Below, piece after piece: positions 3,014 to 53,005 of a DNA stretch of 64,000 nucleotides (positions are counted from its first letter, which is position 1; every line of letters starts with the position of its first letter). Where the stretch lies: IMG/VR virus record IMGVR_UViG_3300044632_000653. The stretch is one strand, 5' to 3'. The DNA comes from a virus. A program made the translations under genes and the position numbers. Under the pieces are notes generated by a model. That model was not told the DNA's origin. It did no database searches and saw only the letters and a program-made list of their open reading frames with translations.

Positions 3014-4345
3014 ATGCACAGGATCATCTCGTCCTTCTGCGCCATGGCTCTCGTAGCCTTCGCAGCCGTCACGACCGCCGCAGCGCAGGTGGTCGTGCCC
3101 CCGAGCATCGTCACGCAGCCCGATGGAACCCTGCGGTTGGTCCCCGTGCCACCCGCAACGGTGTACACCCCGTATGTGATCGACCCGAGCATCAAGTACA
3201 GGCTCGTCATGGAGTCGGGTTGGTCGAACGCCGATTGGCAGGGCAAGACCCGCAACGGTCAGGTCGCCTTGAAGGACCGTGAGATCACGGTTGACCTGAT
3301 GGCGATGCCGCTGACGAGGACCGCCGTGATCGACGGCAAGACCGTGACCCTCTTCAGCGTCTTCCGCTCGGCGGATGTCTGCATCGGTTGGGACAACACG
3401 AAGTTGGAACTCCTCCCGCTCGGTCCCCAAGGGACGGCGTTCGACGCATCCGTCTTCAACGGGTCGAAGTCGAGGTTGGACCGCATCTCCCCCGCAGAGG
3501 GCGAGGGCTCCGCTCAGGGTGTCGCAGTCCTCCATGCCGAGGTCCTGCCCCCGCCGCAGGAGAGGACCCCCGCACTCCGACCCGACTACTACAGGTGGAA
3601 CATGGGAGGATTCCTGTGGCAGGGCGGCTACCGACTCGTAGCCAAGTTGCGGTTCCGAGTGCGGGATGACTTCTACTACCCTGTGCAGTCGAGGACCGAC
3701 ATACGGATCCTCCCCACCGTCTCCCATGGCGGTGTCGAGTACGCCACCAAGATCGACGGGAGCCCGACCAAGGGGACGAATGTCCTCGGCGAGACGAGGA
3801 GCAGCGTGAACGGCATCCTCTTCGGTGTCGGTCCCGAGTACAAGGTCACCCACTCGCTCGTCGCTCCCGCCGTCAAGGCGAAGGTCGGCGACATCGTTCC
3901 CGTGAAGGTACTCGTATCCTCCGAGACCAAGCCGCAGCGGCTGCACTCGGTCGCCACCAACTTCGCATGGGATCCGTCCAAGTTGGAGTTCATGGGCATC
4001 TCCACCACGGGATCGCTCTCGTTCCAACAGAACAACCTTCCCTTCGTGGGGGCGGGGAACATCAACGAGGCGACCGTGCCCAAGGACGGGACGGCTGCGC
4101 ACAATTGGCTGTGCCGCCTCGGGACGAGGACCGTGGTCACGGGCGGCGGTCTCGTCGCCACGCTGAACTTCAAGGTCGTGTCGGAGTTCGACACGGCGGC
4201 GGTCGAGATCCTCGGCAAGGACGATCCCCGACTCGTCGGCGTGTTCGTGTTGGACGAGTCGGGCATCCTCGGCAGCGACATCCCAGGCGTCTTCGTCACG
4301 GGAACGAAGGTCAATGCCGTCGTGAAGGGTCCTCTCTCGCCGTGA
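3014..4345 (+). CDS. Secreted protein with two cohesin-like beta-sandwich domains
   Basis: Sec signal peptide ending AAA-Q; repeated pattern ITVDL..ADVCIGWDNTKLELL..VAKLRFRV / VGDIVPVKVLV..NFAWDPSKLEF..VATLNFKV. Confidence 0.6.
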   Translation: MHRIISSFCAMALVAFAAVTTAAAQVVVPPSIVTQPDGTLRLVPVPPATVYTPYVIDPSIKYRLVMESGWSNADWQGKTRNGQVALKDREITVDLMAMPLTRTAVIDGKTVTLFSVFRSADVCIGWDNTKLELLPLGPQGTAFDASVFNGSKSRLDRISPAEGEGSAQGVAVLHAEVLPPPQERTPALRPDYYRWNMGGFLWQGGYRLVAKLRFRVRDDFYYPVQSRTDIRILPTVSHGGVEYATKIDGSPTKGTNVLGETRSSVNGILFGVGPEYKVTHSLVAPAVKAKVGDIVPVKVLVSSETKPQRLHSVATNFAWDPSKLEFMGISTTGSLSFQQNNLPFVGAGNINEATVPKDGTAAHNWLCRLGTRTVVTGGGLVATLNFKVVSEFDTAAVEILGKDDPRLVGVFVLDESGILGSDIPGVFVTGTKVNAVVKGPLSP

Positions 4346-7888: not shown

Positions 7889-8959
7889 ATGGCAGTACTC
7901 AAGCACTACAACCCGATCACGCACGACATCTACCACTACCCGTTCCCTGCGAATCAGACGAGCGGAGGGGTCACGCCTGATGGCTACAGCAGCGAGTCTC
8001 AGACCTACGGCATCGTGGATTGGTCGGGCACCCGTTGCCTCGACCGCTACCTCTGTAGGGCGATTGGTAACAGCCCCTTCCTCACGATTCCCTACGACAT
8101 CACAAGCGTGAACTTTTGGAACCAATGCACCTATGCAGCGGTGCTGATCAGTCCACGCCATGCCCTCGTCTGTCAGCACTTCCGTGGAGCGCACAGCGAC
8201 CCGAACATCAACACGGGAGGAATCAGGTTCTTTGGCAAGGGGGGCAGCATGTACGAGAACAGGGTGACCCGTGTGTACCTTGATGTCGGACCCGACCTGA
8301 CGCTGCTTGAGTTCCTTCAGCCGTTCCCCGATGCGGATCTCAAGATCTACAACAGGATCGCAGACCCGCTCTACATCCCCTCAGGGACTCCCCTGTGGAC
8401 CAAGGACAGCAACGGCAAGGTATACAAGACGGTGTTCGACAAGGCGAACTACAACCCCAACACAGATGACACCTACGGCTACTCGTTCCGTCCGTCCCTC
8501 GACGGTGTGAACGACGGCGCATATCAGAACGGTACCCTCGCCATCTTCGTCGGCGACTCTGGTTCGCCCGTGATGGTCCGTGACTCATACGGCGAAACCG
8601 TATTCGTAGGACTTCAGTACGGCGGTCAGTCGATCAACCGTGCCACCTTCAGCCGCTTGGTGTCGATCCTTGCTCCCTTCAACTACTCCTTGGAGCATGT
8701 GAAACTCTCCGCTAAGAAGGAAGACATCAATCAGGATGGCAAGGTTGATGCGGAGGACCTTGCCCGTGTCCTCGCTAGTTGGGGTCAGACGAAGGATCCG
8801 TTCTCGGACATGGACGGAGACGGCAAGGTCGATGGCATCGACATCAGTCTCCTGATGAATGCGTGGGGCTCGTACACGATTCCTACTAGCGCACAGTCCA
8901 CGATTCAGCCGCCGATCATCCCTCCTCCCACGGAAACGAACACGAAGCCTCGCTCCTGA
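7889..8959 (+). CDS. Trypsin-like serine protease with C-terminal dockerin-like (EF-hand pair) domain
   Basis: AVLISPRHALVCQH (His), PDLTL (Asp), GDSGSP (Ser); tandem DINQDGKVDAEDLARVLASWG / DMDGDGKVDGIDISLLMNAWG at about 8720-8870. Confidence 0.8.
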   Translation: MAVLKHYNPITHDIYHYPFPANQTSGGVTPDGYSSESQTYGIVDWSGTRCLDRYLCRAIGNSPFLTIPYDITSVNFWNQCTYAAVLISPRHALVCQHFRGAHSDPNINTGGIRFFGKGGSMYENRVTRVYLDVGPDLTLLEFLQPFPDADLKIYNRIADPLYIPSGTPLWTKDSNGKVYKTVFDKANYNPNTDDTYGYSFRPSLDGVNDGAYQNGTLAIFVGDSGSPVMVRDSYGETVFVGLQYGGQSINRATFSRLVSILAPFNYSLEHVKLSAKKEDINQDGKVDAEDLARVLASWGQTKDPFSDMDGDGKVDGIDISLLMNAWGSYTIPTSAQSTIQPPIIPPPTETNTKPRS

Positions 8960-15488: not shown

Positions 15489-16256
15489 ATGATCAAGCAG
15501 AGCATCTTGGGGGTTGGCATCGCCGCCACCCTCACGACCGCCGCCCTCGCACAGGGCAGCAGCACTCAGGACGAGCCGTCGATCAAGGCGGCAGTCTCGG
15601 ACATCAAGTGGTCGATCAACGAGAACTTCGGCTACTACACCTTCGACGGTGGAGAGGATCTCCTCGCATTCGACACGACCTTCGCACTCTCGTTGAACGA
15701 GGACACCGAGGTGTTCGTTTCGATCCCCGTGTACAATCAGGGAGATGAGACCAGCATCGCAAACCTCGCTGTCGGTGGTGAGTTCGTCGCCGCAAAGGGA
15801 ACCGATGGTCTCCTCGGGGAGTGGGACCTCTCTCTTGGCGGCGGTGTGTATCTTCCTGTTGGCTCGGAGACTTTCGATTCGTCCAATGTGGACCCGTTCT
15901 TCACGGGCGAGTTCGGCTGCAAGGCTTGGGTGTTCGACTTCACCCAAACCGCAGAGTTCCGCTTCGTTGGGGGCGGTGCCTACATGCCGTGGCTCGGTGC
16001 GAAGACCGACTCGGATGTCCTCACCTTGGGTAGCAACCTCGGCTACAAGTGGGGCGAGTTCGACCTCGCCGCCGAACTGACGCAGATCTACTACATCGAT
16101 GCGAACGAGGAGCAGATCTTCCTCGGTCCTGTCGTGTCGTGGAGCCCGAACAACACGGTGTCCATCGAAGCCAAGGTGGACTTCCCCATCACGCAGAACA
16201 CCTCGACCCCCGAGACCGACATGGTCGTTGGCGTTGGTCTCGGCATCAAGTTCTGA
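15489..16256 (+). CDS. Outer-membrane beta-barrel protein
   Basis: Signal peptide ending ALA-Q; alternating amphipathic strands; C-terminal GVGLGIKF beta-signal with terminal Phe. Confidence 0.8.
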   Translation: MIKQSILGVGIAATLTTAALAQGSSTQDEPSIKAAVSDIKWSINENFGYYTFDGGEDLLAFDTTFALSLNEDTEVFVSIPVYNQGDETSIANLAVGGEFVAAKGTDGLLGEWDLSLGGGVYLPVGSETFDSSNVDPFFTGEFGCKAWVFDFTQTAEFRFVGGGAYMPWLGAKTDSDVLTLGSNLGYKWGEFDLAAELTQIYYIDANEEQIFLGPVVSWSPNNTVSIEAKVDFPITQNTSTPETDMVVGVGLGIKF

Positions 16257-20287: not shown

Positions 20288-20361
20288 GCCCTCCTAGTTC
20301 AGTTGGATAGAACAGCGGTTTCCTAAACCGCAGGTCGCAGGTTCAAGTCCTGCGGGGGGCG
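20288..20361 (+). tRNA. tRNA-Arg(CCT)
   Basis: Acceptor gccctcc/ggggggc, anticodon arm gcggt-ttCCTaa-accgc, T-arm gcagg-ttcaagt-cctgc. Confidence 0.95.
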
Positions 20362-20363
20362 TT

Positions 20364-21368
20364 ATGAACGACGAGAACAACCCACTAACGGTCTCCACGG
20401 CGAAGGTCGCCTGCCTCACGACGCATGCCACGGATGCCGTGATGAATAGCATCCTCGGCAACGGGTGGGAGGACATCATCATCCCTCGGCGCATCGTGCC
20501 GCCAAACGGCTATCCATCCCCGAAGTTGTGGTGGGCGCAATGGGCGATGAAGATGGCGGTCATCCGAGAACCCGAATATAACACCCCCGAGCGCAAGCGT
20601 GACACGGACATGTTCTCGTACACCGAGAGGAAACTGCGAGGGGTTGATGGTCCCACCTACTTCCTCTCCAACGAACTCATCGATGCACTCGACCGCACCG
20701 ATGTTGAGAACACCATGCCGATGGAGGAACTGCGGTTCCCCCACGAAGGAATGCTCTTTGTCCTGCCGACCGCTCGACGGTTCGCCGAAATCAACGGCGT
20801 GTTCGGCTCCATGTCGCATGTCACTATGTTCACCATCTCACAGATGGATCATGTGAATTTTGGGAAGTCCTACATCGTGACCTTCCTCGACAACGAGGGG
20901 GTTTCATCCCATGCTCACTACCCCTGTCGAGGAACTTACGCAGAGCAGATGTCTGAGTTTGGGAGCGAGTTCTGTTGCAACACCGAAGATGCACTAGAGG
21001 CATTCAGGCGTGAGTTCAACATCGAAGTCAACCCCAATCAATTAGAGGCAGACAAGTGGCAGAACGGAATGGTCGTGAGAATGGCATGGAAGATTCTCTG
21101 CGCCATGAACTGCACGAACGACATCGTGAGGGTCGGTGGCGGTGTGTGCCGTGAGGCGAGGACGAAGAAGGGCAAGACACGCCCCGCCCTGTGGAACCCG
21201 ATCATCCTCGACCTCGGCGAGAGGATCCGCACCGAAGGAGAAGACTCCTCGGGCGCAGGTGTGAAACTGCATTGGAGGCGGGGGCACTTCCGTCGCCAAG
21301 TCTGCGGAGTCGGCAGGGCGCAGCGCAAGACGATGTGGATCAAGCCGCACAAGGTCGGGTCCCTCTAA
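20364..21368 (+). CDS. Hypothetical protein with C-terminal HWRRGHFRRQ..WIKP motif
   Basis: Motif common in phage hypothetical proteins. Confidence 0.65.
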   Translation: MNDENNPLTVSTAKVACLTTHATDAVMNSILGNGWEDIIIPRRIVPPNGYPSPKLWWAQWAMKMAVIREPEYNTPERKRDTDMFSYTERKLRGVDGPTYFLSNELIDALDRTDVENTMPMEELRFPHEGMLFVLPTARRFAEINGVFGSMSHVTMFTISQMDHVNFGKSYIVTFLDNEGVSSHAHYPCRGTYAEQMSEFGSEFCCNTEDALEAFRREFNIEVNPNQLEADKWQNGMVVRMAWKILCAMNCTNDIVRVGGGVCREARTKKGKTRPALWNPIILDLGERIRTEGEDSSGAGVKLHWRRGHFRRQVCGVGRAQRKTMWIKPHKVGSL

Positions 21369-21376
21369 ATACAACC

Positions 21377-21931
21377 ATGCTGACCCTTACGGAAGCCATA
21401 CTCAAGGCGAACCCCAAGTCGCAGATCTACTGCGACATGGACGGGGTACTCGTTGACATCATCGGCGGCATCTGTTCTGCCGATGGGAAGCCCCGATGCA
21501 GCGAGACCGACTTTGAGGACTACTTGGAGCGCAACAAGAAGAAGTTCGACTCGGAGCATCCGAGGATCTTCGCAAGGCTCCCGTGGATGAAGGACGGCAA
21601 GGGGCTGTGGTCGTACATCTCGCAGTTCTCGGCAAACATCCTCTCGGCACATACGGTTTCATGGCAACCGACGAGCAAGGAAGACAAGATGGTATGGATC
21701 AAGCGTGAGATGCGACCCTTGCCATCAAGGATCCACATCCTGCTACGCCATCAGAAGCGTGAGTACGCCGTACAGGATGACGGCACACCGAACATCCTGA
21801 TCGATGATTGGGAGCAGAACATCGTTGAGTGGAAGGCTGCGGGTGGGATCCCCATCCATCATAAGAATGCCGCCACCACGATTGCCACGCTCAAGAAGTT
21901 GGGATTCAATAAGGGGAGAAAGACAGCATGA
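21377..21931 (+). CDS. HAD-family 5'(3')-deoxyribonucleotidase-like
   Basis: IYCDMDGVL, ILSA, K, ILIDD motifs; ATG 5 nt after TAAATA. Confidence 0.85.
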   Translation: MLTLTEAILKANPKSQIYCDMDGVLVDIIGGICSADGKPRCSETDFEDYLERNKKKFDSEHPRIFARLPWMKDGKGLWSYISQFSANILSAHTVSWQPTSKEDKMVWIKREMRPLPSRIHILLRHQKREYAVQDDGTPNILIDDWEQNIVEWKAAGGIPIHHKNAATTIATLKKLGFNKGRKTA

Positions 21932-22554
21932 ACAGGGACACCTTGAAAAACCTCACCGAGGCTGCGAACGACATCGGCACCATGAGGGTGCTTGACGAGG
22001 CATCGCTGTCTCGGCTCTACCAACACACGCTCGACAGGAACATCGGCATCATCACCGCCTTCCGTGGTCGCTATCCCGTCTCCGAGAACAAGGCTAGGAA
22101 CTCCAAACTCCAAGCCGAGATCCGTGCTGCGGGGTTCGGGTTCTACCGAGTCGATGGTCACTACATCGAAGGGTACGGTTCCGAGGTCTCCAAGGATGTG
22201 AAGGAACAGGCGTTCCTCGTCATCGGGGACAAGGGAGATGACAAGGGTAGGCTCAAGGGATTCCTGCGCAAGGCGGGTGCGAGGCACAACCAAGACTCCG
22301 TTCTGTACAAGTCGTTCGACGGCAAGGCTGTCCTGATCGGCACACAGGGCAAGGACGAGGACGGCAACCCCGTCGAGTTCCCAGGTCTCGGCAAGGAGTT
22401 CTCCGTGGGCGAGTTCAAGCCCATGAAGGTCTCGCAGTTCTACTCCAAGATGAAGGGCAAGCCTTTCGTGTTTGAGTCGTACCAAGAAGCGGACACCTTC
22501 AACAGCGCATGGTTGAGGCATCTGATGGCGGGGAAAGAGCCATCGGCGAAGTAG
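21928..22554 (+). CDS. Conserved T4-like hypothetical protein with type-B leader
   Basis: MNRDTLKNLTEAANDIG..LDE then SLSRLYQH..IITAFRG..N..RN..L. Confidence 0.7.
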   Translation: MNRDTLKNLTEAANDIGTMRVLDEASLSRLYQHTLDRNIGIITAFRGRYPVSENKARNSKLQAEIRAAGFGFYRVDGHYIEGYGSEVSKDVKEQAFLVIGDKGDDKGRLKGFLRKAGARHNQDSVLYKSFDGKAVLIGTQGKDEDGNPVEFPGLGKEFSVGEFKPMKVSQFYSKMKGKPFVFESYQEADTFNSAWLRHLMAGKEPSAK

Positions 22555-22617
22555 CCCAACGGCAGAGGCATTCGATTCAAAATCGAACTAGTGTGGGTTC
22601 GACTCCCACCTTCGCTA
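22545..22617 (+). tRNA. tRNA-Leu(CAA), short variable loop
   Basis: Acceptor ggcgaag/cttcgct, anticodon arm ttcga-ttCAAaa-tcgaa, T-arm gtggg-ttcgact-cccac. Confidence 0.9.
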
Positions 22618-22629
22618 CTAGGAGGAATC

Positions 22630-22854
22630 ATGGCATACATTGCAGGTCAAGGCTACAGGGACGGCTACAACGACCGAATGTCAGGTAACCCAAACAGGTA
22701 CCCGTTCGGCATGACTTCTGCCACATCCGACAGTAGGGTGTATTGGGACGAGTACCTGACGGGATACGCCGAGGCGAACACCAAGGTGTTGCAGGATGCC
22801 CGTCACAGCGTGAATGAGATCCACGGAAGCATGGGTCGCTACCTCATCGAATAG
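22630..22854 (+). CDS. Small hypothetical protein
   Basis: GGAGG RBS; GYxDGY..Y..GY motif. Confidence 0.6.
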   Translation: MAYIAGQGYRDGYNDRMSGNPNRYPFGMTSATSDSRVYWDEYLTGYAEANTKVLQDARHSVNEIHGSMGRYLIE

Positions 22855-22862
22855 ATACGAAC

Positions 22863-23228
22863 ATGACCGTCATCACCACCCTACTCACCCTTCAGTCCCA
22901 ACTCCGTGTCTTCCATTGGCAGACAAAGTCGTATGCCGAGCATAAGGCACTCGGGAGACTCTACGAGACTCTCGACGGACAGATCGATGAGTTCGTGGAG
23001 ACCTTCTCGGGACGCTACGGTGTCCCCGCAGCCAAGGATTCCTACAAGTTGACCTTGGTGAACTACAAGGACAACGCAGGGGTGGTCGAAATCCTCGACC
23101 AAGCCATCTCGTACATGACCAAAGATGTCCCGTCCCTCCTCAAGACCGAGGACACGGATCTCCTCAATATCAGGGACGAGATGATCGGAGCGATCAATCG
23201 GACGAAGTATCTCCTCCGTCTCAAGTAA
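22863..23228 (+). CDS. Ferritin/Dps-like protein (DUF5856-type)
   Basis: FHWQTKSYAEHKALGRLYETL..IDEFVE; ATG 5 nt after TAGATA. Confidence 0.8.
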   Translation: MTVITTLLTLQSQLRVFHWQTKSYAEHKALGRLYETLDGQIDEFVETFSGRYGVPAAKDSYKLTLVNYKDNAGVVEILDQAISYMTKDVPSLLKTEDTDLLNIRDEMIGAINRTKYLLRLK

Positions 23229-23233
23229 ACCAA

Positions 23234-23591
23234 GGGGTCGATCAGGTATCGAATCCATGAAGACCGATGAGTGATGCGCCACGGGAAACCATGCTAGACC
23301 CGTAAAAGTGTATGGAAACCATAACTGCCAAGTTCAATGTGCAGCCCCGTCAGCGTCTCGCTCTCGCAGCCTGACCCCGACGAATCGTCTTCCCGACTCC
23401 CTTGAGGAAGACGATCAGACCAAGGGATAGGTCGCAGGGAGTCGGGAAGCCGACTGCGACCGAGATCAAAGATCCCGAAACTGAACCCGTTCAGTCGCTC
23501 TCGGCGGCGGGTCAGTACAAGCGAGGGCTATTGGCGTAGTAGGCACCACGGTAGGCATGAGATCACGGGGGTTCGATTCCCCCCGACTCCA
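23234..23591 (+). ncRNA. ssrA: tmRNA; tag (A)AKFNVQPRQRLALAA at 23327-23374
   Basis: 5' GGGGTCG pairs with 3' CGACTCC-A including G3.U; T-arm gggg-gttcgattc-cccc; ATAACT-GCC resume context; tag ends LALAA-stop. Confidence 0.93.
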
Positions 23592-23592
23592 T

Positions 23593-23663
23593 TCGCCTGT
23601 TGTGTAAAGGTAGCACAGAAGACTTTGATTCTTCCAGTCTTGGTTCGATCCCAAGCGGGCGAG
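23593..23663 (+). tRNA. tRNA-Gln(TTG)
   Basis: Acceptor tcgcctg/cgggcga, anticodon arm gaaga-ctTTGat-tcttc, T-arm cttgg-ttcgatc-ccaag. Confidence 0.93.
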
Positions 23664-23672
23664 TTCACAGCA

Positions 23673-30932: not shown

Positions 30933-31679
30933 GTGACCTCGGAGATCCACCACAACGAGGCTCTCATATTCCTTGAAGCCGAGCCATCCGAGAAGTACGA
31001 CTTCGTCTATCTCGACCCACCGTACTACTGTCAGAGGGACTTCTCGGAGTTCAACGACAGGTGGTCGGGTATTGACGAGTACATGGGCATGCTCTCGCCT
31101 GTGTTCAGCGAGGTGCGCCGTGTCCTCAAGCCGCACGGCAACATCTGCATCCATGTGGATTGGCATGCCGCCCATCATGTGCGCCTCTGCCTAGACCGAG
31201 CGTTCGGTGAGGGCAACTTCCGCAACGAGATCATTTGGTGCTACGCCTCGGGTGGGGCATCGAAGCGTCACTTCTCACGGAAGCACGACAACCTGTTCGT
31301 CTATGCCAAGGATGCCGACCTCTGCCGTTTCAACCTGATCCGTGAGCCGTATCCCCGTGACTACGGCGACAGGGAGGGCTTCCACCCTGACGGTCGAATA
31401 ATGAACGATTGGTGGCAGATCGGGATCCTGTCCACGACCGCCAAGGAGCGGAACGGGTATCCGACGCAGAAACCATTGGAACTTCTTGAGCGTCTGATGA
31501 AAGCCTACACGAATGGAGGCGATCTAGTCCTTGACCCCATGTGCGGCTCGGGCACCACTTTAGAGGCGGCGTTGCGTCTCGGCAGAAGTTCAGTCGGAGT
31601 GGATAAGAACCCTGCGGCGGTTTCGACCGCCAAGGCAAGGGTCGAGCGGTGCGTGGGTCTGAACGGACTCATGGAATGA
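30933..31679 (+). CDS. DNA methyltransferase (beta class, DPPY)
   Basis: YLDPPY, YPTQKP, LDPMCGSGTT. Confidence 0.92.
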   Translation: MTSEIHHNEALIFLEAEPSEKYDFVYLDPPYYCQRDFSEFNDRWSGIDEYMGMLSPVFSEVRRVLKPHGNICIHVDWHAAHHVRLCLDRAFGEGNFRNEIIWCYASGGASKRHFSRKHDNLFVYAKDADLCRFNLIREPYPRDYGDREGFHPDGRIMNDWWQIGILSTTAKERNGYPTQKPLELLERLMKAYTNGGDLVLDPMCGSGTTLEAALRLGRSSVGVDKNPAAVSTAKARVERCVGLNGLME

Positions 31680-32743
31680 CCGAAGACTCCCGCTACCGCA
31701 TCATCGAAGGCGACTGCATCAAGGGAATGAAGACGCTGCCTGACTGCTGCGTTCACACCTGCATCACCTCGCCGCCGTACTTCGGACTTCGTGACTACGG
31801 CAAGGAAGATCAGATCGGTCTTGAGGAGACTCCCGATCAATATGTCGCCAAGATGGTCGAGGTGTTTCGTGAGGTTCGGAGGGTTCTCCGTGACGATGGA
31901 ACCGTGTGGCTGAACTTGGGTGACTCGTACTCCGCAGGAGGCAGGGGCAAGGGACAGGATGGAAGCATCCAACAGGGAAACAAGGGTTCCATGACGGGAG
32001 CCGTGTTCAACTCATGGAAGGTCGAAGGCTTCAAGAACAAGAACCTCTTGGGCATTCCTTGGCGTGTAGCCTTTGGTTTACAGGCTGACGGTTGGTACTT
32101 GAGGCAGGACATCATTTGGTCGAAGCCAAACCCGATGCCCGAGTCTGTGACCGACCGTTGCACCAAGTCACATGAGTACATATTCCTCCTCACCAAGTCG
32201 CAGAAGTACTACTACGACTATGAGGCGATCAAGGAGCCACTTGCTGAAGCATCGTTCGGTGGTATTGGCGGCAAACGCAACAAGCGTTCCGTTTGGACTG
32301 TGACCACCAAGCCGTTCCGTGGAGCGCACTTCGCCACCTTCCCGAAGGACTTGATCGAACCTTGTGTCCTTGCAGGTACGAGCGCACATGGGTGTTGCTC
32401 CAAGTGCGGTCAACCATACGAGCGTGTGATGGAGAAGACGGGCGAGTTCCAACGCCGTTGGTCAACCAACAACGCAGAAGGCTCTCCCTACGAGACTCAG
32501 TCGAGCATGCAGAAAACCTACAGGACTGCGGGATGGTCTGTCGATTGTCCCTGTGGATGCAGCGCACCCGTAGTCCCCTGCACGGTGCTTGATCCGTTCA
32601 CGGGCAGCGGAACCACCTGTGTCGTGGCGTTGAACCACGGCAGGAAGTTCATCGGCACCGAGTTGAACCCCGAGTACATCAAGATCGCAACCGACAGGAT
32701 CGCCGACGAGGCACCGATGAACCTCATGGATGTGATGGTGTGA
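31676..32743 (+). CDS. DNA methyltransferase (beta class, SPPY; N4-C type likely)
   Basis: TSPPY, HFATFP, LDPFTGSGTT. Confidence 0.92.
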   Translation: MTEDSRYRIIEGDCIKGMKTLPDCCVHTCITSPPYFGLRDYGKEDQIGLEETPDQYVAKMVEVFREVRRVLRDDGTVWLNLGDSYSAGGRGKGQDGSIQQGNKGSMTGAVFNSWKVEGFKNKNLLGIPWRVAFGLQADGWYLRQDIIWSKPNPMPESVTDRCTKSHEYIFLLTKSQKYYYDYEAIKEPLAEASFGGIGGKRNKRSVWTVTTKPFRGAHFATFPKDLIEPCVLAGTSAHGCCSKCGQPYERVMEKTGEFQRRWSTNNAEGSPYETQSSMQKTYRTAGWSVDCPCGCSAPVVPCTVLDPFTGSGTTCVVALNHGRKFIGTELNPEYIKIATDRIADEAPMNLMDVMV

Positions 32744-35274
32744 AGCCTTTCTACACCGCCGTCAACACCAAGGGCAGCAGGATCCTCCACAGAGGGTACG
32801 ACGAGAGCGGTCGGAGGCTCCATGAGTCGCTGACATTTCGACCCACGCTCTTCGTGACCACGGGCAAGCCGAAGCCCTCGTCGTGGAGGACAATCGACGG
32901 CAAGGCTGTCGATCCCGTGGACTTCGACACCATGTACGAGGCTAGGCAGTTCTCCTCGGAGTACCGTGGTGTCGGCGGTCTCGGGGTCTACGGCGACATC
33001 GACTCGGAGTTTCAGTTCATCGCAGACAGGTACGGCAGCGAGGGGGAGATGCCATACGATCCCTCGGTGATCCGTGTCCTGTCCCTCGATATTGAGGTCG
33101 AGAGCGAGGATGGATTCCCATCCGTTGACGATCCCCGAGAGAGGGTGAACGCCATCACGCTCATCCAAGGGAGCAAGGTCCACGCTCTCGGGCTCGGCGA
33201 CTTCTCCGTCGATGGAGTGACATGCCACTCGTTCAACGACGAGGCAAGTCTCCTCCACCGATTCCTCGACCTGTGGGAGGAACTCGACCCTGACATCATC
33301 ACGGGATGGAACGCCCAATTCTACGACATCCCGTACCTGTACAACAGGATCAGCAGGGTGCTTGGGAGCAAGGCGGTGAAGCGATTGTCCCCGTGGGGCG
33401 AGATCCGCACCCGCAAGGTGGTCGTGATGGACAGGGAGAATCAGGTCTACGACCTCGCAGGTATCTCCATACTCGACTACTACGACCTCTACAGGAAGTT
33501 CACCTTCGTGACCCGTGAGTCGTACAAGTTGCAGCACATCGCAATGATCGAACTCGGCGAGGGCAAGATCGACTACTCGGATGTGGGAACCCTCTCGGAC
33601 CTGTACAAGCAGGACTTTCAGAGGTTCATGGAGTACAACATCAAGGACACCAGACTTGTCATCCAACTAGAGGACAAGTTGAGGCTGATCGAACTCGCCC
33701 AAGCCCTTGCGTACAGCGCACGGACGAACCTTGACGATGTCTTCTCGCAGGTGCGGATGTGGGACAGCATCATCTACCACTACCTGCGGACGAAGAGGAT
33801 CGCCATCCCCCCGAAGCCATCGGTCGAGAAGCGTGAGCAGTTCGCAGGGGCGTATGTCAAGGAGCCGAAGCCGAACACCTACGAATGGGTGGCATCCTTC
33901 GACCTCGACAGCCTCTATCCGCACCTCATCATGCAGTACAACCTGTCCCCCGAGACCCTTGTCGAGGAGAGGATCCCCGACATGACTGCGGACACCCTCC
34001 TCGCCGAACCCGAGAGGTTCACGGGCGCACTCGCACGGGCGCACGGGGAGAACCTCTCCGTGGCGGGGAACGGAACCATGTACCGCAGGGACATCCATGG
34101 ATTCCTGCCCGAACTCATGGAGACGATGTACAGGCAGCGCAAGGAATACAAGAGGCTCTCGGTGGATGCCAAGGGGTGGCTCAAGAAGAACGCCGACACC
34201 GCCTCGCCGCAGCAGGTCCTTGAGAAGAAGAAGGAAGTCAGCAAGTACCACAACTTCCAACTCGTCCGCAAGGTTCAGTTGAACAGCGCATTCGGTGCGA
34301 TGGGGAACCAGTACTTCCGCTACTACGACCTTCGCATCGCAGAAGCGATCACATGGTCGGGCAAGTTGTCGATCAAGTGGATCGAACAGAAGTTGAACCG
34401 CTTCCTCAACAAGACATGTGGCACCGAGTCCCACGACTATGTGATCGCATCGGACACCGACTCGGTCTACCTCCATCTCGGTCCATTGGTCTCCAAGGTG
34501 GTGGGCGACAAGCCCCCGAAGGAGACCGTGCAGTTCCTCAACAAGTCCTGCAACGAGATCATCCTGCCCCGCATCTCCAAGTGGTACGGGGAACTGTCGG
34601 ACACGATGAACGCCTATGCGAACCGCATGAGCATGAAGCGGGAGAACATCGCCATGCGTGGTCTGTGGGCGGCGAAGAAGCGGTACTGCCTCGCCGTACA
34701 CATGGGAGAGGACGATGTGTACATGGAGGAGCCCGACATCAAGGTGACGGGGCTTGAGGTCGTTCGCTCATCGACACCGCAGGTGGTTCGCAGCAGTCTC
34801 CATGAGGCTATCAGGCTGATCCTCACCTCCGACGAAGGTGCGCTGCGCTCGTTCGTGGACCGATTCCACGACGAGTTCATGTCGCTGTCGGTGCATCAGA
34901 TCTCGTTCCCCCGAGGCTGCAACAACCTTGACGAGTACGCCGATGCCGCCGCCATCTACAAGAAGTCAACCCCCATCGCAGTCAAGGGCGGTCTCCTGTA
35001 CAACCACCTCGTCAAGACGAAGAGGCTCACGAAGTCCTATCCTCTGATCAGGGAGGGCGACAAGATCAAGTTCTGCTACCTCAAGGAGCCGAACCCGATC
35101 CGTGAGCATGTCATCTCCTTCGTGACCGCCCTTCCCGACGAGTTCGGCTTGGAGCAGTACATCGACAGGGAGACGCAGTTCGACAAGGCTTTCCTTGAGC
35201 CGCTCAAGAAACTGCTCGACATCGTCGGGTGGAGCGTGGAAGACAAGGCTAGCCTCGACACCCTCTTCGGCTGA
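32740..35274 (+). CDS. gp43: Family B DNA polymerase
   Basis: DIEV exonuclease, FDLDSLYP, K..LNS.FG, SDTDS, KKRY. Confidence 0.97.
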   Translation: MKPFYTAVNTKGSRILHRGYDESGRRLHESLTFRPTLFVTTGKPKPSSWRTIDGKAVDPVDFDTMYEARQFSSEYRGVGGLGVYGDIDSEFQFIADRYGSEGEMPYDPSVIRVLSLDIEVESEDGFPSVDDPRERVNAITLIQGSKVHALGLGDFSVDGVTCHSFNDEASLLHRFLDLWEELDPDIITGWNAQFYDIPYLYNRISRVLGSKAVKRLSPWGEIRTRKVVVMDRENQVYDLAGISILDYYDLYRKFTFVTRESYKLQHIAMIELGEGKIDYSDVGTLSDLYKQDFQRFMEYNIKDTRLVIQLEDKLRLIELAQALAYSARTNLDDVFSQVRMWDSIIYHYLRTKRIAIPPKPSVEKREQFAGAYVKEPKPNTYEWVASFDLDSLYPHLIMQYNLSPETLVEERIPDMTADTLLAEPERFTGALARAHGENLSVAGNGTMYRRDIHGFLPELMETMYRQRKEYKRLSVDAKGWLKKNADTASPQQVLEKKKEVSKYHNFQLVRKVQLNSAFGAMGNQYFRYYDLRIAEAITWSGKLSIKWIEQKLNRFLNKTCGTESHDYVIASDTDSVYLHLGPLVSKVVGDKPPKETVQFLNKSCNEIILPRISKWYGELSDTMNAYANRMSMKRENIAMRGLWAAKKRYCLAVHMGEDDVYMEEPDIKVTGLEVVRSSTPQVVRSSLHEAIRLILTSDEGALRSFVDRFHDEFMSLSVHQISFPRGCNNLDEYADAAAIYKKSTPIAVKGGLLYNHLVKTKRLTKSYPLIREGDKIKFCYLKEPNPIREHVISFVTALPDEFGLEQYIDRETQFDKAFLEPLKKLLDIVGWSVEDKASLDTLFG

Positions 35275-48144: not shown

Positions 48145-48248
48145 CCTGCACATGGACGGGTGCCTGAATCGGAAAAAGGTGGTCGCTTATAACGGCCCTC
48201 ATGTGGGTTCGATCCCCACCCCGTCTACTCATAGATACGGAAAATACC

Positions 48249-49406
48249 ATGCTCACATTCAAGGAAGTCGGCACCACAGAGATCACCCGCAACAAGCACC
48301 TCCCCCATGTCGAGGACCTCATGTTCCTTGAGGGAAAGGGAGGTCTCGCCTCCTCGCTCCACATCCTCGCCGAGGTGATGCGTCAGTCCGATGGCATCAG
48401 GATGTCGGTGAAGTGGGATGGTCGCCCCGCCATCGTGTGTGGGATCAATCCCGAGAACTCCAAGTTTTTCGTCGGCACGAAGGCGGCGTTCAACAAGGAT
48501 GTCCGTGCGTTCGACACCAAGGATGGGATCATGGCGGGGGTGGAGAACCCCGACCTCGCCGAGAAGTTGGTCGAGTGCCTCGCATGGCTCCCTAGCCTCG
48601 GCATCCGAGGTGTCGTGCAAGGCGACCTCCTGTTCACCTCCGATTCCATCACGGTCACCGAGGAGGAGGTGGCGTTCCAACCCAACGCCATCAGGTACTC
48701 GGTCGGAAGGAACACCGCCGTGGGCAAGGCGATCAGCAACGCCAAGTTGGGTGTCGCCTTCCATACGGTCTACGAGGGCAAGACCATGGGATCGCTCACG
48801 GTCTCCTCGTTTGGATTCGACCCTTCCATGGTCGCACAGGATTCCCCCGTTTGGTTCCCGAGCATCTCCGTACACACCCTCACGGAAAGCACTCCACTTG
48901 AGAACGCCACCAATGAGGCGAGGCTCCACTACTGCGAGGAGCAGTCGGAGAAGGTCGGGCAGTTCCTCGGGACCATGCTCTCAAACAAGGAACTCGTCCC
49001 CTTCCTCTCCCCCTACATCAACGCCACGGTCATGGCGAACATCTCGGAGTGTTCGGCACGGGGTCTTGCCCTCTACATCGAAACCAAGGTGGGCAAGGAG
49101 ATCCTCAAGTTGAAGACCGACAAGGGCAGGTCGGACAAGAAGGCACTAGCAGACCGCCTGATCAACTTCACCGAGGTCTACGCCAAGCAGTTCGATACGG
49201 CGTTTCTCCTACATAGGAAGATGGCTCTCGTAAAGGAATCTCTCCTCCAAAGGGTGCCTCTTACCGAGTTCCGCCATCACTTTGTCGATGCCGAGGGCAT
49301 GCGACCGACCGAGCCCGAGGGAATCGTCGTGAGTGAGTCCAAGAGAGCCGTGAAGTTCGTGACACGGTCACGGTTCTCGGCGCAGAACAGGAAGGTAAAC
49401 GGGTGA
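48249..49406 (+). CDS. Conserved T4-like phage protein (DUF6267-like; ligase-type KxDG motif)
   Basis: NKHL.HVED, SVKWDG.PAIVCG, FFVGTK, QGDLLF, PEG.V; TAGATA at 48232. Confidence 0.75.
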   Translation: MLTFKEVGTTEITRNKHLPHVEDLMFLEGKGGLASSLHILAEVMRQSDGIRMSVKWDGRPAIVCGINPENSKFFVGTKAAFNKDVRAFDTKDGIMAGVENPDLAEKLVECLAWLPSLGIRGVVQGDLLFTSDSITVTEEEVAFQPNAIRYSVGRNTAVGKAISNAKLGVAFHTVYEGKTMGSLTVSSFGFDPSMVAQDSPVWFPSISVHTLTESTPLENATNEARLHYCEEQSEKVGQFLGTMLSNKELVPFLSPYINATVMANISECSARGLALYIETKVGKEILKLKTDKGRSDKKALADRLINFTEVYAKQFDTAFLLHRKMALVKESLLQRVPLTEFRHHFVDAEGMRPTEPEGIVVSESKRAVKFVTRSRFSAQNRKVNG

Positions 49407-52400
49407 AAGGTTTCTCCACACACATCAGCGAGCGTGGTCCGAGGGACACCGCAGTCTTCTCGTTCGGGCGCATGAATCCTCCGACAACGGGACATGGTGT
49501 GGTGGTGGACACGGTCGTTGAGGAGGCTAGGGCTCTTGATGCCGATCACTTCGTCTTCCTCTCCCGCACACAGGATGCAAAGGTGAACCCCCTCTCGACC
49601 GAGAAGAAGGTCGAGTACATGAAGGCGTTCTTCCCGAATACAAACATCTCCACCGAGGCTACGAACCCCTTCGATGCCGTCCTGCATCTCTGCGACATGG
49701 GATACAAGAACATCGTCCTCGTCACGGGAGATGATCAACAGGCTGACTACGAGCGCATCCTGAAGTACAAGGGAACGGTCGCCGCCAAGGATCCAAAGGG
49801 AAGGTCCTACTCGTTTGAGTCGTTCCGAGTCCGTGTGGCGGGGGAGCCCCGCTCCAAGGATTCGACGGGACTCGCAGCCGTGGGTGCGACCGATGCCCGT
49901 GAGGCGGCTTTCAGAGGCGACTTCGCCGCATTCTCCGCACTCATCCCCACCGAGGACGGTCTCCTCAAGGAGCGGCTCTACAACGATGTCCGCAAGGGTC
50001 TCGGTCTCAACGAGGAGTATGTCGAGGAGGCTCGGGAGAACGGAGACAAGGTCACCATCCTCGCCCTGACATCCTCGGACAAGGATCTCTCGGACACGAT
50101 TGAGAAGATGGGGGAGATCTGCAAGAAGCGCAAGATCCCCTTCTATGCCGTCAAGACGAAGAAGGCGCAGATCGACCTGTCGAGCGTCGTGGCGAAGAAG
50201 ATCACCATCAAGAACTATGACGGCGAAGGCAAGGATGTGACCATCGTTCCGAGCGACACGATAGCAATCGTCCGTGGCGGGGTTATGAACAGCGAGGTCG
50301 GGGTTGCGATCCTCACCATCCTTCAGAACAACGGCGTGTTCATGGTGAACGAGAAGGGGGGTATGGAACTCTGCGCCAACAAGTTGGAGACCGCCATCGC
50401 CCTCAAGAAGCACGGTCTGCCCCACCCAAAGACCGCCTATGTCTCTAGCGAGGCGAACATCGAAGCCGCAGTCAAGGAGATCGGGGGCAAGTTTCCCGTC
50501 ATCTGCAAGACCCTGACGGGTGCCGAGGGCATCGGTGTCTCCAAGATCGAAAGCATGGAGAGCCTCAAGAGCGTCCTACAGACGCTTTGGAAGTTCGGTG
50601 CCGAGATCATCATCCAAGAGTTCCTCCCCGACTTCAAGAACGATGTCCGCAGCATCGTCCTCAACGGCAAGATCTTCGCCTGTGCCAAGCGTGACAAGGC
50701 ACCGAAGGACTTCCGCACGAACATCGCCCGTGGATCGAAGGGCGGCTCGTTCCAACTCTCCGACGAGGAGATCAAGTTGGTCGAGCAAGCCGCTCGGGTG
50801 AGCAAGTGCTACTATGTCGGAATCGACCATGTCATCAACGATGGCAAGCCGTACATCATTGAGATGAACGCAAGCCCTGGCAGCGGCAACATCTACTACC
50901 GCTACTACGAGGACGGCAAGGGCAAGGACAATGTCAAGGGCGAGGAGTTGGTCGAGGACTTCCTTGACCACATCCTTGTCAAGGCAAATTGGAAGTTGTT
51001 CTCAAACCTCGCAGTCCGTGAGACGGTGAAGGTCGATGGCGTGGAGTACCAAGCCAAGATCGACACGGGGAACAGCGGCTACAACATGATCCATGCCACG
51101 GAGATCAAGGACAACGGCGACCACACCGTCACCTTTAGGCTCCCGAGCGGCAAGAAGGTGACGAAGAAGATCATCAGCCGCATCAGCGTGAAAAGCGGGA
51201 TCGGGGAGAAGAAGCGTCTCGTCGTGCTGATGGACATCGACTTCCACGGGAAGCACTATCCGAACATCAAGTTCTCCCTCGGCGACCGAAGCCACATGTC
51301 GAGCAAGGTCCTCGTCGGTCTCCGATTCCTCGGACAGACGGGCAGCGTGGTTGACCCCGCCGATGCCATCTATCCTCAACCCGACCCCAAGAAGAAGGGG
51401 GTGACCGAGGAGGAGGAAGAGGAGGAGGAGATCTCGGAGATGTCTGCGGTCGAGGTGAAGGACGCAGCCAAGGAGATCATCACAAGCCCGTTGGTGGCGA
51501 CCAAGGTATTCGCTCTCGCCAACAAGAAGAAAGTGCTGACTCCCGAGGCTTTCAAGAAGGAAGTTGAGACAACGAAGCAGGAAATCCTCGCCCACGCATA
51601 CAAGGTCACGGGCGCATCCGTGACCTTGAACATGTTCCTACAGAAGACCATGTTGGGCAAGTTCTTGGTGAAGATCCTCGACAAGGTCCTCATCCAAGGA
51701 ACCATCGACCCCGTGATTGTGGGGAAGGCTCTCCACTCGGCTATTCCGTATCTCGGCATGGGCGACGATGTCGATGGCAATCCCCTCGTCGAAGCCGATG
51801 TCACCAAGGGCAAGAAATTCAAGACCAAGTCGGGCAAGACGAGGAAGTCGCCCGAGGACAAGACCTCGGGTCTCCCGAAGAAGTATGTCTCGGGATTGAG
51901 CAAGGGCGAGGCGAAGACCCGAAGCAGGGAACTCGCCAAGCGGAAGGACATGCCCGATGACGATCCCAAGACTTGGGAGTTCGTGAATCCACGGGAGAAA
52001 AAGATGAAGACGAAGCCGTCGAAGTACACGACGCTGTTCAAGAAACTCGCCAAGAAGGGCAAGGTCAAGGCTATCAAGAGCGGCTACGAGCATGACGAGG
52101 CTTTGGAGCGGCTGTGGTCCATTGACGAGTCCCAAGAGACGAACTCGTCCAAGTTGAGGCTAGCCATCGCCTACGAGGACCGATGCCGTGAGCGAGGCAT
52201 GTCGGAGGCTACCGAACTCGTCAGGGCGTACATCGAACAACTCAAGGAAGTCCGCAACGAAGAGATCGGCACGGACGAGCCCACCACCATTGACGAGGAC
52301 TTCGACTACCTGCTGATGGAGGTGAGTCCTCCTAGCGGACCCGCCCGTCGATTCTCCAAGAAGGAGAAGGTCAAGGCTCAGTTCAAGAAGAGGTACGGCA

Positions 52401-53005
52401 AAGATTGGAAGCAGGTCTTCTACGCCACGGCATGGAAGATGCACGGCAAGTCCGAGTCGGTCGTGGTCGCCGACGAATGGCTTGCCGAGGCTGACAGGAT
52501 CCACGGCGTGATGAAGTGGACCTCCTTGAGCAAGCGTGGTCCCCTTGAGATAGGCAGCGACGAGATCGTCAAGACCTACAAGCGTGACACTCCAGGTGAG
52601 CGTGAGCGTCTCAAGGAGGAGGGCGGCGAGGAGATCGATGACGAGAAGAGGCGGCTCTACAAGGAGTGGCAGAAACTCGTCAACATGTCGGGCAAGGAGA
52701 TCCAATCGTTCCTCGACTCCGATGGTGGCGAGGAGGCGGGATTGAGCCGCAAGGAGGCGGGTAAGGCGGGAGCGGGTGGCAAGAAGATCACCAGCGGTCG
52801 TGACTCTGCCCGTGCGATCATCCGAATGCTCGACACCCCGATGGTGAAGTGGAGTGCCAACGATTGGAAGTGGGCGGGTAAGCAAGTCAACTTCATCTCC
52901 CGCATGAAGGGTGCGAAGGGCGGCATGCGTGACGAGAAGGGTCGCCCCACCCGCAAACTCCTAGCACTCAAGGTTTGGGGTCACAACCCCGAGAAGAAAG
53001 GCTGA
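49403..53005 (+). CDS. 1200-aa polyprotein: CTS-like leader, HIGH-type nucleotidyltransferase, RimK-like ATP-grasp ligase, retropepsin-like (RimB-type) protease, poly-Glu, small basic modules, DUF3140-like C-terminus
   Basis: MKGFSTHISE; FGRMNPPTTGH; NKLET..P.T..FPVICK..G.EGIGV..QEF..DVR..FRTN.ARG..GID..EMNASPG; AKIDTGN; E8 at 51407-51430; LVNMS..SGRDS..WGHNP. Confidence 0.85.
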   Translation: MKGFSTHISERGPRDTAVFSFGRMNPPTTGHGVVVDTVVEEARALDADHFVFLSRTQDAKVNPLSTEKKVEYMKAFFPNTNISTEATNPFDAVLHLCDMGYKNIVLVTGDDQQADYERILKYKGTVAAKDPKGRSYSFESFRVRVAGEPRSKDSTGLAAVGATDAREAAFRGDFAAFSALIPTEDGLLKERLYNDVRKGLGLNEEYVEEARENGDKVTILALTSSDKDLSDTIEKMGEICKKRKIPFYAVKTKKAQIDLSSVVAKKITIKNYDGEGKDVTIVPSDTIAIVRGGVMNSEVGVAILTILQNNGVFMVNEKGGMELCANKLETAIALKKHGLPHPKTAYVSSEANIEAAVKEIGGKFPVICKTLTGAEGIGVSKIESMESLKSVLQTLWKFGAEIIIQEFLPDFKNDVRSIVLNGKIFACAKRDKAPKDFRTNIARGSKGGSFQLSDEEIKLVEQAARVSKCYYVGIDHVINDGKPYIIEMNASPGSGNIYYRYYEDGKGKDNVKGEELVEDFLDHILVKANWKLFSNLAVRETVKVDGVEYQAKIDTGNSGYNMIHATEIKDNGDHTVTFRLPSGKKVTKKIISRISVKSGIGEKKRLVVLMDIDFHGKHYPNIKFSLGDRSHMSSKVLVGLRFLGQTGSVVDPADAIYPQPDPKKKGVTEEEEEEEEISEMSAVEVKDAAKEIITSPLVATKVFALANKKKVLTPEAFKKEVETTKQEILAHAYKVTGASVTLNMFLQKTMLGKFLVKILDKVLIQGTIDPVIVGKALHSAIPYLGMGDDVDGNPLVEADVTKGKKFKTKSGKTRKSPEDKTSGLPKKYVSGLSKGEAKTRSRELAKRKDMPDDDPKTWEFVNPREKKMKTKPSKYTTLFKKLAKKGKVKAIKSGYEHDEALERLWSIDESQETNSSKLRLAIAYEDRCRERGMSEATELVRAYIEQLKEVRNEEIGTDEPTTIDEDFDYLLMEVSPPSGPARRFSKKEKVKAQFKKRYGKDWKQVFYATAWKMHGKSESVVVADEWLAEADRIHGVMKWTSLSKRGPLEIGSDEIVKTYKRDTPGERERLKEEGGEEIDDEKRRLYKEWQKLVNMSGKEIQSFLDSDGGEEAGLSRKEAGKAGAGGKKITSGRDSARAIIRMLDTPMVKWSANDWKWAGKQVNFISRMKGAKGGMRDEKGRPTRKLLALKVWGHNPEKKG

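Follow-up and report, generated by a model that had tools for sequence, protein, structure and literature searches.

The 64-kb window analysed here, the whole 64,000-nucleotide stretch of IMG/VR virus record IMGVR_UViG_3300044632_000653, carries a block of transfer RNA (tRNA) genes at 20288-23664 in a genome purged of restriction-like words. The original prediction, made from the letters alone, held that three tRNAs of this block read exactly the codons that restriction-site avoidance would force, and so compensate for the distortion of codon use. The window has 56.8% guanine plus cytosine (GC), all its called genes lie on the plus strand, as do its tRNAs and tmRNA, and a replication module of gp45, gp44, gp43, UvsX and gp41 places it among the T4-like phages. 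Its gp43 DNA polymerase (32740-35274; phrog_262), which was used for placement, is 48% identical to those of T4-like cyanophages. Gene calls are our own codon-model calls and omit the open reading frame (ORF) left open at the right end; a collagen-like ORF (59077-60645) was partly called in the wrong frame, the miscalled part amounting to about 1% of codons. The tRNA inventory covers the 64-kb window.

The block opens with tRNA-Arg(CCU), which reads AGG (20288-20361; called by ARAGORN, 65.6 bits in Rfam). Directly behind it lies a gene for a 334-amino-acid protein with AcrVA2-like orthologues (20364-21368). These orthologues (49-67% identity) were found only in the related records G003, L077, L079, G008 and G014; a precomputed PF26125 match exists on those of L077, L079 and L080, and the window's own protein has no match in our local copy of Pfam. 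The AcrVA2-like gene accompanies Arg(CCU) in all records of its clade and is found in none of the kin with Arg(UCU). There follow a 5'(3')-deoxyribonucleotidase-like gene (21377-21931; phrog_2643, E = 1e-18) and a putative anti-restriction gene of the S-adenosylmethionine (SAM) lyase family, resembling the T3 SAMase (21928-22554; PF23780, 41.5 bits against a curated cut-off of 28), whose end overlaps the start of tRNA-Leu(CAA). The latter (22545-22618; ARAGORN, confirmed by Rfam) is ancestral, reads TTG and, at 74 nucleotides, has no long variable arm. Most close kin carry the same short form, a gene that has the anticodon UAA in low-GC relatives and in G005/G026; in L077, G025, G031 and G028 a long-arm Leu(CAA) is found instead. 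The block ends with a DUF5856 (Dps-like) gene (22863-23228; PF19174, 69 bits; phrog_858), a transfer-messenger RNA (tmRNA) whose tag peptide ends in LALAA (23234-23591; ARAGORN; Rfam RF00023, 89 bits) and tRNA-Gln(UUG), which reads CAA and CAG (23592-23664; ARAGORN, under the Rfam gathering score). Between tmRNA and tRNA-Gln, kin conserve a tRNA-like element of about 90 nucleotides with an acceptor-like stem and a T-arm-like hairpin (11660-11760 in L002, about 18170-18270 in L079, about 12130-12215 in L004), on which ARAGORN makes no call and which is deleted in the window.

All three predicted tRNAs are thus present, but the tmRNA and a fourth tRNA had been overlooked. This tRNA-Ile(UAU), which reads ATA (48154-48228; ARAGORN), lies behind gp41 across the family. 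It has the anticodon UAU and not the lysidine-type CAU, and is kept there whatever the use of ATA (4-23%). The gene contains one of the window's six GGCC sites, and its G025 copy has a long arm. Low-GC kin (L089, L108, L137, L139 and L149; G028, G031) also carry a tRNA-Ser(ACU), an anticodon unusual in bacteria.

The loss of restriction-like words runs through the window on both strands (1-64000) and appears in Markov ratios, codon-aware penalties and simulation alike. The four 4-mers foreseen as essentially absent do not occur at all (observed/Markov-expected: CCGG 0/346, CGCG 0/273, ACGT 0/209, AGCT 0/135), and the two foreseen as rare are rare (GGCC 6/287, CCAG plus CTGG 42/381). About 20 further words are depleted, among them TTAA (0/10), CASTG (CAGTG/CACTG, 1/43) and some 16 hexamers at or near zero, including GTCGAC (0/66), CACGAG (0/60), GACGAC (0/58), ATCGAG (1/43), CGATCG (0/34), GAGCAC (0/24), TTCGAA (0/18) and TCATGA (0/16). 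Avoidance persists once composition and codon use are corrected for, with observed/expected ratios below 0.1: a codon-aware model assigns the purged words log-penalties of -3 to -9, and a codon-model simulation of half of the genes with avoidance switched off yields 92-164 copies per 4-mer, where the same genes in the real DNA hold no AGCT, ACGT, CCGG, CGCG or GGCC. Zero counts hold across the entire window, so that avoidance extends beyond coding DNA. Even AGCT, a word common in the D-stem of tRNAs, is found in 0 of 150 distinct tRNA genes of the family, and departures in the sequence of these tRNAs are partly explained by its purging. Among the 22 family records compared, AGCT is avoided in all and ACGT in 21; avoidance of CCGG, CGCG and the hexamers toggles on and off by lineage.

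Most of the purged words correspond to orthodox Type II sites (HpaII, BstUI, HpyCH4IV, AluI, HaeIII, MseI, SalI, PvuI, BssSI, PstI, XhoI, BstBI, BspHI, HaeII, AcyI and HgiAI). CCAG/CTGG, which is not known to be the site of any enzyme, is non-palindromic and ninefold depleted with no flanking base preference, and CCTG/CAGG is not depleted. In G025 and G030 only CCWGG is avoided, unlike the CCAG/CTGG of the window. A scan for gapped motifs, which lacks the power to detect 7-base sites, found no long bipartite (Type I-like) motif. GATC, TCGA and CATG had been called common, which holds against base composition only; at 0.94, 0.74 and 0.91 of Markov expectation, they are simply not avoided. We infer that restriction by hosts caused the purge, in line with the near-complete loss of short words at orthodox Type II sites described for virulent double-stranded DNA phages (Rusinov et al. 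2018, PMC6286503).

This purge distorts codon use. Leucine after AG is always TTG in the window's genes (71/71), and glutamine after C is CAA in 88 of 95 cases, as in the collagen-like tract (59533-59595), where three Gly-Pro-Gln triplets read ggt-ccc-caa in frame (59533, 59551 and 59587). Before GT, as had been noticed for codons preceding valine, Asp is GAT (72/72), Asn AAT (27/27) and Tyr TAT (29/29), and His is CAT (32/32). Lys and Glu codons preceding CT end in A without exception. TTG is nevertheless not the commonest way out at Lys-Leu and Glu-Leu junctions, where it had been noticed: where Lys, Glu or Gln meets Leu, NAA-CTN is commoner than NAG-TTG, TTG being the solution in 37% (17 versus 60 for Glu-Leu). 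The dependence of AGG on context was misplaced too, in that the share of AGG among Arg codons is the same after C as elsewhere (0.32 versus 0.31, p = 0.85). After this null result we conditioned instead on which codons are blocked, and the share of AGG then rises from 0.23 to 0.33 and 0.58 as none, one or both of CGC and CGG are blocked; the matching figures are 0.06 to 0.55 for TTG and 0.13 to 0.93 for CAA.

Codon gains were measured against a fitted counterfactual with no avoidance. The largest avoidance-driven gains are GAT (+159), GCA (+145), TTG (+115), CAA and GGT (+98 each), GAA (+96) and AGG (+94); ATA gains 14. Avoidance accounts for 50-55% of TTG, 57-59% of CAA, 19-26% of AGG and 21-22% of ATA use. 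TTG, CAA and AGG rank third, fourth and seventh among 59 codons (rank-sum p = 0.0013), and therefore the three tRNAs do read strongly pushed codons; they also stand out among the 16 codons read by family tRNAs (ranks 2, 3 and 5, p = 0.02). These ranks speak for the view that the tRNA set as a whole was put together to match the forced codons exactly, as do the persistence of Gln(UUG) while both flanking sides suffered losses and the different, long-arm Leu(CAA) gene of L077 and G025, which hints at selection on the anticodon. The word "exactly" fails, however. ATA ranks only 28-30 (share 0.057 against 0.044 in the counterfactual), and with Ile included the comparison within the family pool weakens to p = 0.07-0.09; no phage tRNA serves the two top gainers, GAT and GCA, and Glu(UUC) has disappeared despite a gain of GAA close to that of CAA. 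Invented word sets also lift TTG, CAA or AGG to the top, because these are generic escape codons.

The history of the tRNAs does not support an exact assembly either. Kin at 40-52% GC mostly carry 9-18 tRNAs (one lineage has four plus probably Ile), usually Arg(UCU), Lys, Leu, Gly, Asn, Gln, Thr, Tyr, Glu and Ile(UAU), and tRNA number drops as GC at third codon positions (GC3) rises (Spearman -0.75, n = 15, kinship not corrected). Array alignment shows an ancestral Gly-(His/Ser)-Asn-Gln-Thr-Tyr array, reduced in the window's block to Gln(UUG). Leu(CAA), Gln(UUG) and Ile(UAU) are 79-85% identical to their G004/G006 counterparts (Gln 79%), and L194, a non-avoiding phage of 36% GC, also carries Leu(CAA) and Gln(UUG). 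Such comparisons show these three tRNAs to be inherited remnants of a family set of 10-18. Ranking the nine ancestral cluster tRNAs by forced gain puts the three kept at 1, 2 and 4, with a p of 0.024 that comes from one of five metrics, picked after the fact, against 0.27-0.54 for the fold-change metric and 0.18 with Ile; since Ile is presumed kept in L077, L079 and L086, only the values without Ile apply in this test. Forced gain did not predict the independent reductions in G025, L086 and G026 (p = 0.27-0.9).

The sister virus G008/G014 (two records of one virus, agreeing at 99.995% over 20 kb; 56% GC, with a polymerase 79% identical) lies within the Arg(CCU) clade and largely refutes an exact match. 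It purges the same 4-mers as the window, and its syntenic block, contiguous from Arg(CCU) to gp45, contains neither SAM lyase, Leu(CAA), DUF5856, tmRNA nor Gln(UUG); Arg(CCU) and Ile(UAU) are the only tRNAs kept in this record, which is 20% complete. No accompanying change in codon use was detected in G008, where TTG is the solution in 0.31 of cases against 0.38 in the window (p = 0.25) and glutamine after C is CAA in 36 of 40. Gln(UUG) is also missing from the CCAG-depleted G005/G026 and L068/L086. After GC3, the presence of Gln(UUG) does not co-vary with CAA/CAG (effect -0.13, standard error (SE) 0.19, t = -0.7), and that of Leu(CAA) shows a non-significant +0.29 on TTG/CTG (SE 0.20, t = 1.4; 3 of 16 lack the gene, two of those having Leu(UAA)). 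Leu(UAA) has a +1.6 log2 effect on TTA use (t = 3.3). That the tRNA set as a whole was built to read the forced codons is very improbable, and of the proposed compensation there remain the distortion itself and a link for Arg(CCU).

A rival explanation is counter-defence, under which tRNAs and tmRNA replace host tRNAs that are cut by anticodon nucleases or depleted during infection, the codon matches being incidental or secondary. The SAM lyase, the AcrVA2-like gene and the tmRNA share the block, Gln(UUG) leaves no codon footprint, gain and loss are patchy in kin as expected under shifting host defences, and such a role is known from other phages (PMC10264068, PMC11464382, PMC11555353). It does not predict that Arg and Leu anticodons track the use of AGG/AGA and TTA, or that tRNA number falls with GC, and the sequence departures of the tRNAs are accounted for in part by AGCT purging. 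We regard it as rather unlikely to be the main explanation.

The arginine tRNA stands apart. In kin, the position of Arg(CCU) is taken by Arg(UCU), as a rule together with Lys(UUU), and Arg(CCU) is the sole cluster tRNA retained by every clade member. The gene is identical in L001, G003 and L079 and 74-76% identical in L077/G008; it arose once, in the clade of 56-59% GC, at the ancestral Arg(UCU) site and with its AcrVA2-like neighbour. Elimination of CCGG together with CGCG is confined to this clade. In five CCU records, 22-29% of Arg sites admit neither CGC nor CGG, compared with 0-6% in 11 UCU records, and AGG makes up 0.30-0.38 of Arg codons in the clade against 0.04-0.13 in UCU kin. Context-free log2(AGG/AGA) follows GC3 closely in 13 UCU carriers (r = 0.98, residual standard deviation 0.16), and six CCU records lie 2.2-3.1 units above this line. 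Arg(CCU) presence thus co-varies with AGG use among relatives (+2.2 log2 after GC3), in one phylogenetic event. Outside the family, Arg(CCU) is also found in two complete, unrelated phages purged of CCGG and CGCG, G035 and G036, where AGG stands at 45% and 38%, and G035, which purges AGCT and CCWGG as well, has no Leu or Gln tRNA.

Plain GC drift would be another account, in which UAA gave way to CAA and UCU to CCU as GC rose, the link to the purge being a coincidence on one branch. The Leu anticodon does track TTA use and GC, the clade's AGG/AGA ratio is in line with other purine-ending pairs, and avoidance is not generally enriched in CCU carriers. However, the GC-matched G025 (GC3 0.75), which does not purge CCGG/CGCG, keeps Arg(UCU) with AGG at 0.13. 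Arg(CCU) alone does not lift AGG either (median 0.077 in 35 viral loci at GC of at least 0.5), and non-avoiding GC-rich CCU viruses show AGG at 0.01-0.24, so drift does not yield 0.30-0.38. We consider it improbable that drift alone explains the switch.

Several points weigh against tying Arg(CCU) to the purge. The switch happened a single time on the tree, where it is confounded both with high GC and with the arrival of the AcrVA2-like gene, and at least three quarters of AGG use is not site-forced. The clade's AGG/AGA ratio (3.1 log2) lies inside the 2.1-3.9 range of AAG/AAA, GAG/GAA and CAG/CAA, and since it is typical of these pairs, UCU sustaining AGA in kin explains the contrast equally well. 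Among unrelated viruses, CCGG plus CGCG avoidance is not enriched in CCU carriers (1/82 against 2/70 for UCU), in a comparison diluted by probable attachment-site tRNAs. The CGCG purgers G042/G043 reach AGG shares of 0.20-0.24 with no clear tRNA, and G035/G036 were chosen after the fact. On the side of the inherited tRNAs, the incompleteness of G008 and the scattering of tRNAs in G027 make relocated Leu and Gln genes possible; in G004 and G026 all tRNAs lie inside the region syntenic with the window.

Taking these points together, we put at roughly 55% the probability that, of the window's tRNAs, only Arg(CCU) is tied to the purge, the rest being an inherited, eroding set. More tentatively, phages of high GC from which CCGG and CGCG have both been purged may be funnelled from CGN to AGG and repeatedly acquire Arg(CCU), host restriction thereby selecting an anticodon indirectly. 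Other observations touch on the arginine tRNAs. G036 (L479-L481) is a 60-kb phage with about 50 depleted words whose sole tRNA is Arg(CCU). G038, distantly related and of 46% GC, has genes for both Arg(UCU) and Arg(CCU) (L482, 12213 and 18790; also G039); it purges ACGT, AGCT and CCGG, not CGCG, has AGG at 0.15, and may be an intermediate state. Rctr197k, the top phage match to the Arg tRNA (88%), was set aside as uninformative, its tRNA set being near-full.

The mechanism we propose starts from a virulent T4-like lake phage lineage that has probably been under long selection by numerous Type II restriction enzymes of its hosts and has purged their sites. Comparison with kin shows that its ancestors were AT-richer, with 10-18 T4-style tRNAs, and that most of these were deleted during the rise to 57% GC; the ancestral set resembles that of T4. 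The purge blocks GC-ending codons in many contexts, and codons ending in A or T therefore persist, as do TTG and AGG from the second boxes. Leu(CAA), Gln(UUG) and Ile(UAU) are leftovers by inheritance, and the forced demand for TTG and CAA may delay the disappearance of Leu(CAA) and Gln(UUG) without requiring them. At about a quarter of Arg sites the joint purge of CCGG and CGCG blocks CGC and CGG; with both blocked, AGG would have become the leading Arg codon and Arg(UCU) been swapped for Arg(CCU), which may supply a codon that a GC-rich host probably reads poorly. The methyltransferases and the SAM lyase would be anti-restriction layers of their own, apart from the purge.

The methyltransferases are two orphan genes with intact domains (PF01555 above cut-off): one with a DPPY motif, of the N6-adenine type and RsrI/CcrM/MboII-like (30933-31679; 164 bits), the other with an SPPY motif, of the N4-cytosine type (31676-32743; 162 bits). 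The suggestion that they cover retained sites was right about the genes and wrong for GATC, TCGA and CATG. No N6_N4, D12 or C5 methyltransferase match exists in G004 (93% complete), which keeps these words (0.91, 0.81 and 0.88), and we reject shielding of them. We also found no 4-6-mer whose retention goes with the presence of either gene and whose loss goes with its absence. GRGCYC (GAGCCC/GGGCTC) is at expectation in the window (34/34), G003 and L079 and at zero in most kin, including the clade members L077, G008 and G014; in G008/G014 the word is avoided even though both methyltransferases have orthologues there. Where GRGCYC is retained, selection may have been relaxed recently, or a protective enzyme may have gone unseen. 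G008 carries four DNA methyltransferase genes in 7 kb (L230, 10710-17933), three SPPY paralogues and one DPPY, one of them between gp45 and gp44; the SAM lyase is missing at its usual place. In the window, the putative SAM lyase of the tRNA block suggests a second layer against SAM-dependent systems, for which the SAM-cleaving enzyme of T3 is the precedent (10.1101/2023.02.27.530186; PMC6286503).

Beyond the tRNA block, the window encodes a cohesin protein (3014-4345), a dockerin-tailed protease (7889-8959) and a PF13557-like beta-barrel (15489-16256), for which the homologues retrieved were phage-borne, and a 1200-amino-acid fusion (49403-53005) with matches to RimK-like ATP-grasp, a putative zinc protease, DUF3140 and DUF6321. 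The tRNA block is present in twenty lake-water DNA runs and, among the runs listed, in no RNA data set; comparison of the window with four lake DNA assemblies showed cover and no joints. A scan of genome contigs for the host with the dockerin protease returned a single unrelated contig of 38% GC, homologue and Atlas searches returned phage proteins, and the sole host hint is a dockerin_GC match below threshold (E = 0.003).

The family forms a natural experiment on phage tRNA content, spanning 40% to 59% GC and 2 to 18 tRNAs with differing sets of purged sites. It separates tRNAs with a codon footprint (Arg; Leu UAA versus CAA) from those without (Gln). Should the Arg finding be replicated, restriction-modification would join host codon bias and anticodon nucleases as a third force that shapes phage tRNA content; if such purging does select Arg(CCU) repeatedly, the anticodon of a phage tRNA-Arg would be predictable from the sites avoided, linking two fields that have been treated separately. 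The purged words, taken as a list, also amount to a prediction of the lake host's methylome and could serve to find that host. Our literature searches, with subscription papers largely outside their coverage, found no paper joining site avoidance to phage tRNA content.

The closest cultured T4-like myoviruses are the Synechococcus phages S-RIM8 and WH25-B. The window phage shares with T4-like myoviruses gp43, gp44, gp45, UvsX, gp41, thyX and a tRNA cluster; it differs in a polymerase only 48% identical, in its 57% GC, in its cohesin, dockerin and beta-barrel genes, and in belonging to an uncultured family known from lake metagenomes. As in the phages of PMC6286503, which leaves tRNAs and codons unmentioned, mostly palindromic short Type II words are gone and no long bipartite motif is detected, and a gene for an enzyme of the SAM-cleaving type is present, as noted there for T3. 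Unlike those cases, the window combines more than 20 words purged at once with 57% GC and lineage-specific on/off patterns, and it has a depleted non-palindromic 4-mer, CCAG/CTGG.

Phage tRNAs acting as counter-defence against anticodon nucleases (PMC10264068), as with PARIS (PMC11464382) and in retron evasion (PMC11555353), resemble the present ones in that tRNAs stand beside a tmRNA and genes of anti-defence type and are retained patchily, but Lys(UUU) and Tyr(GUA), which figure in PARIS and in retron evasion, are the very ones lost from the window's block. For codon compensation, summarised in PMC10264068, with an analysis of the GC gap in PMC13015707 and the Syn9 Leu(UAA) case in PMC11726456, the defining comparison is with the host; in the window phage, compensation is gauged against a no-avoidance counterfactual. 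As in those cases, tRNAs are more numerous in the AT-richer relatives, and Arg and Leu anticodons track codon use. Unlike them, the phage is GC-rich, the codon in excess ends in G (AGG), and the excess is tied to the purging of sites rather than to AT richness.

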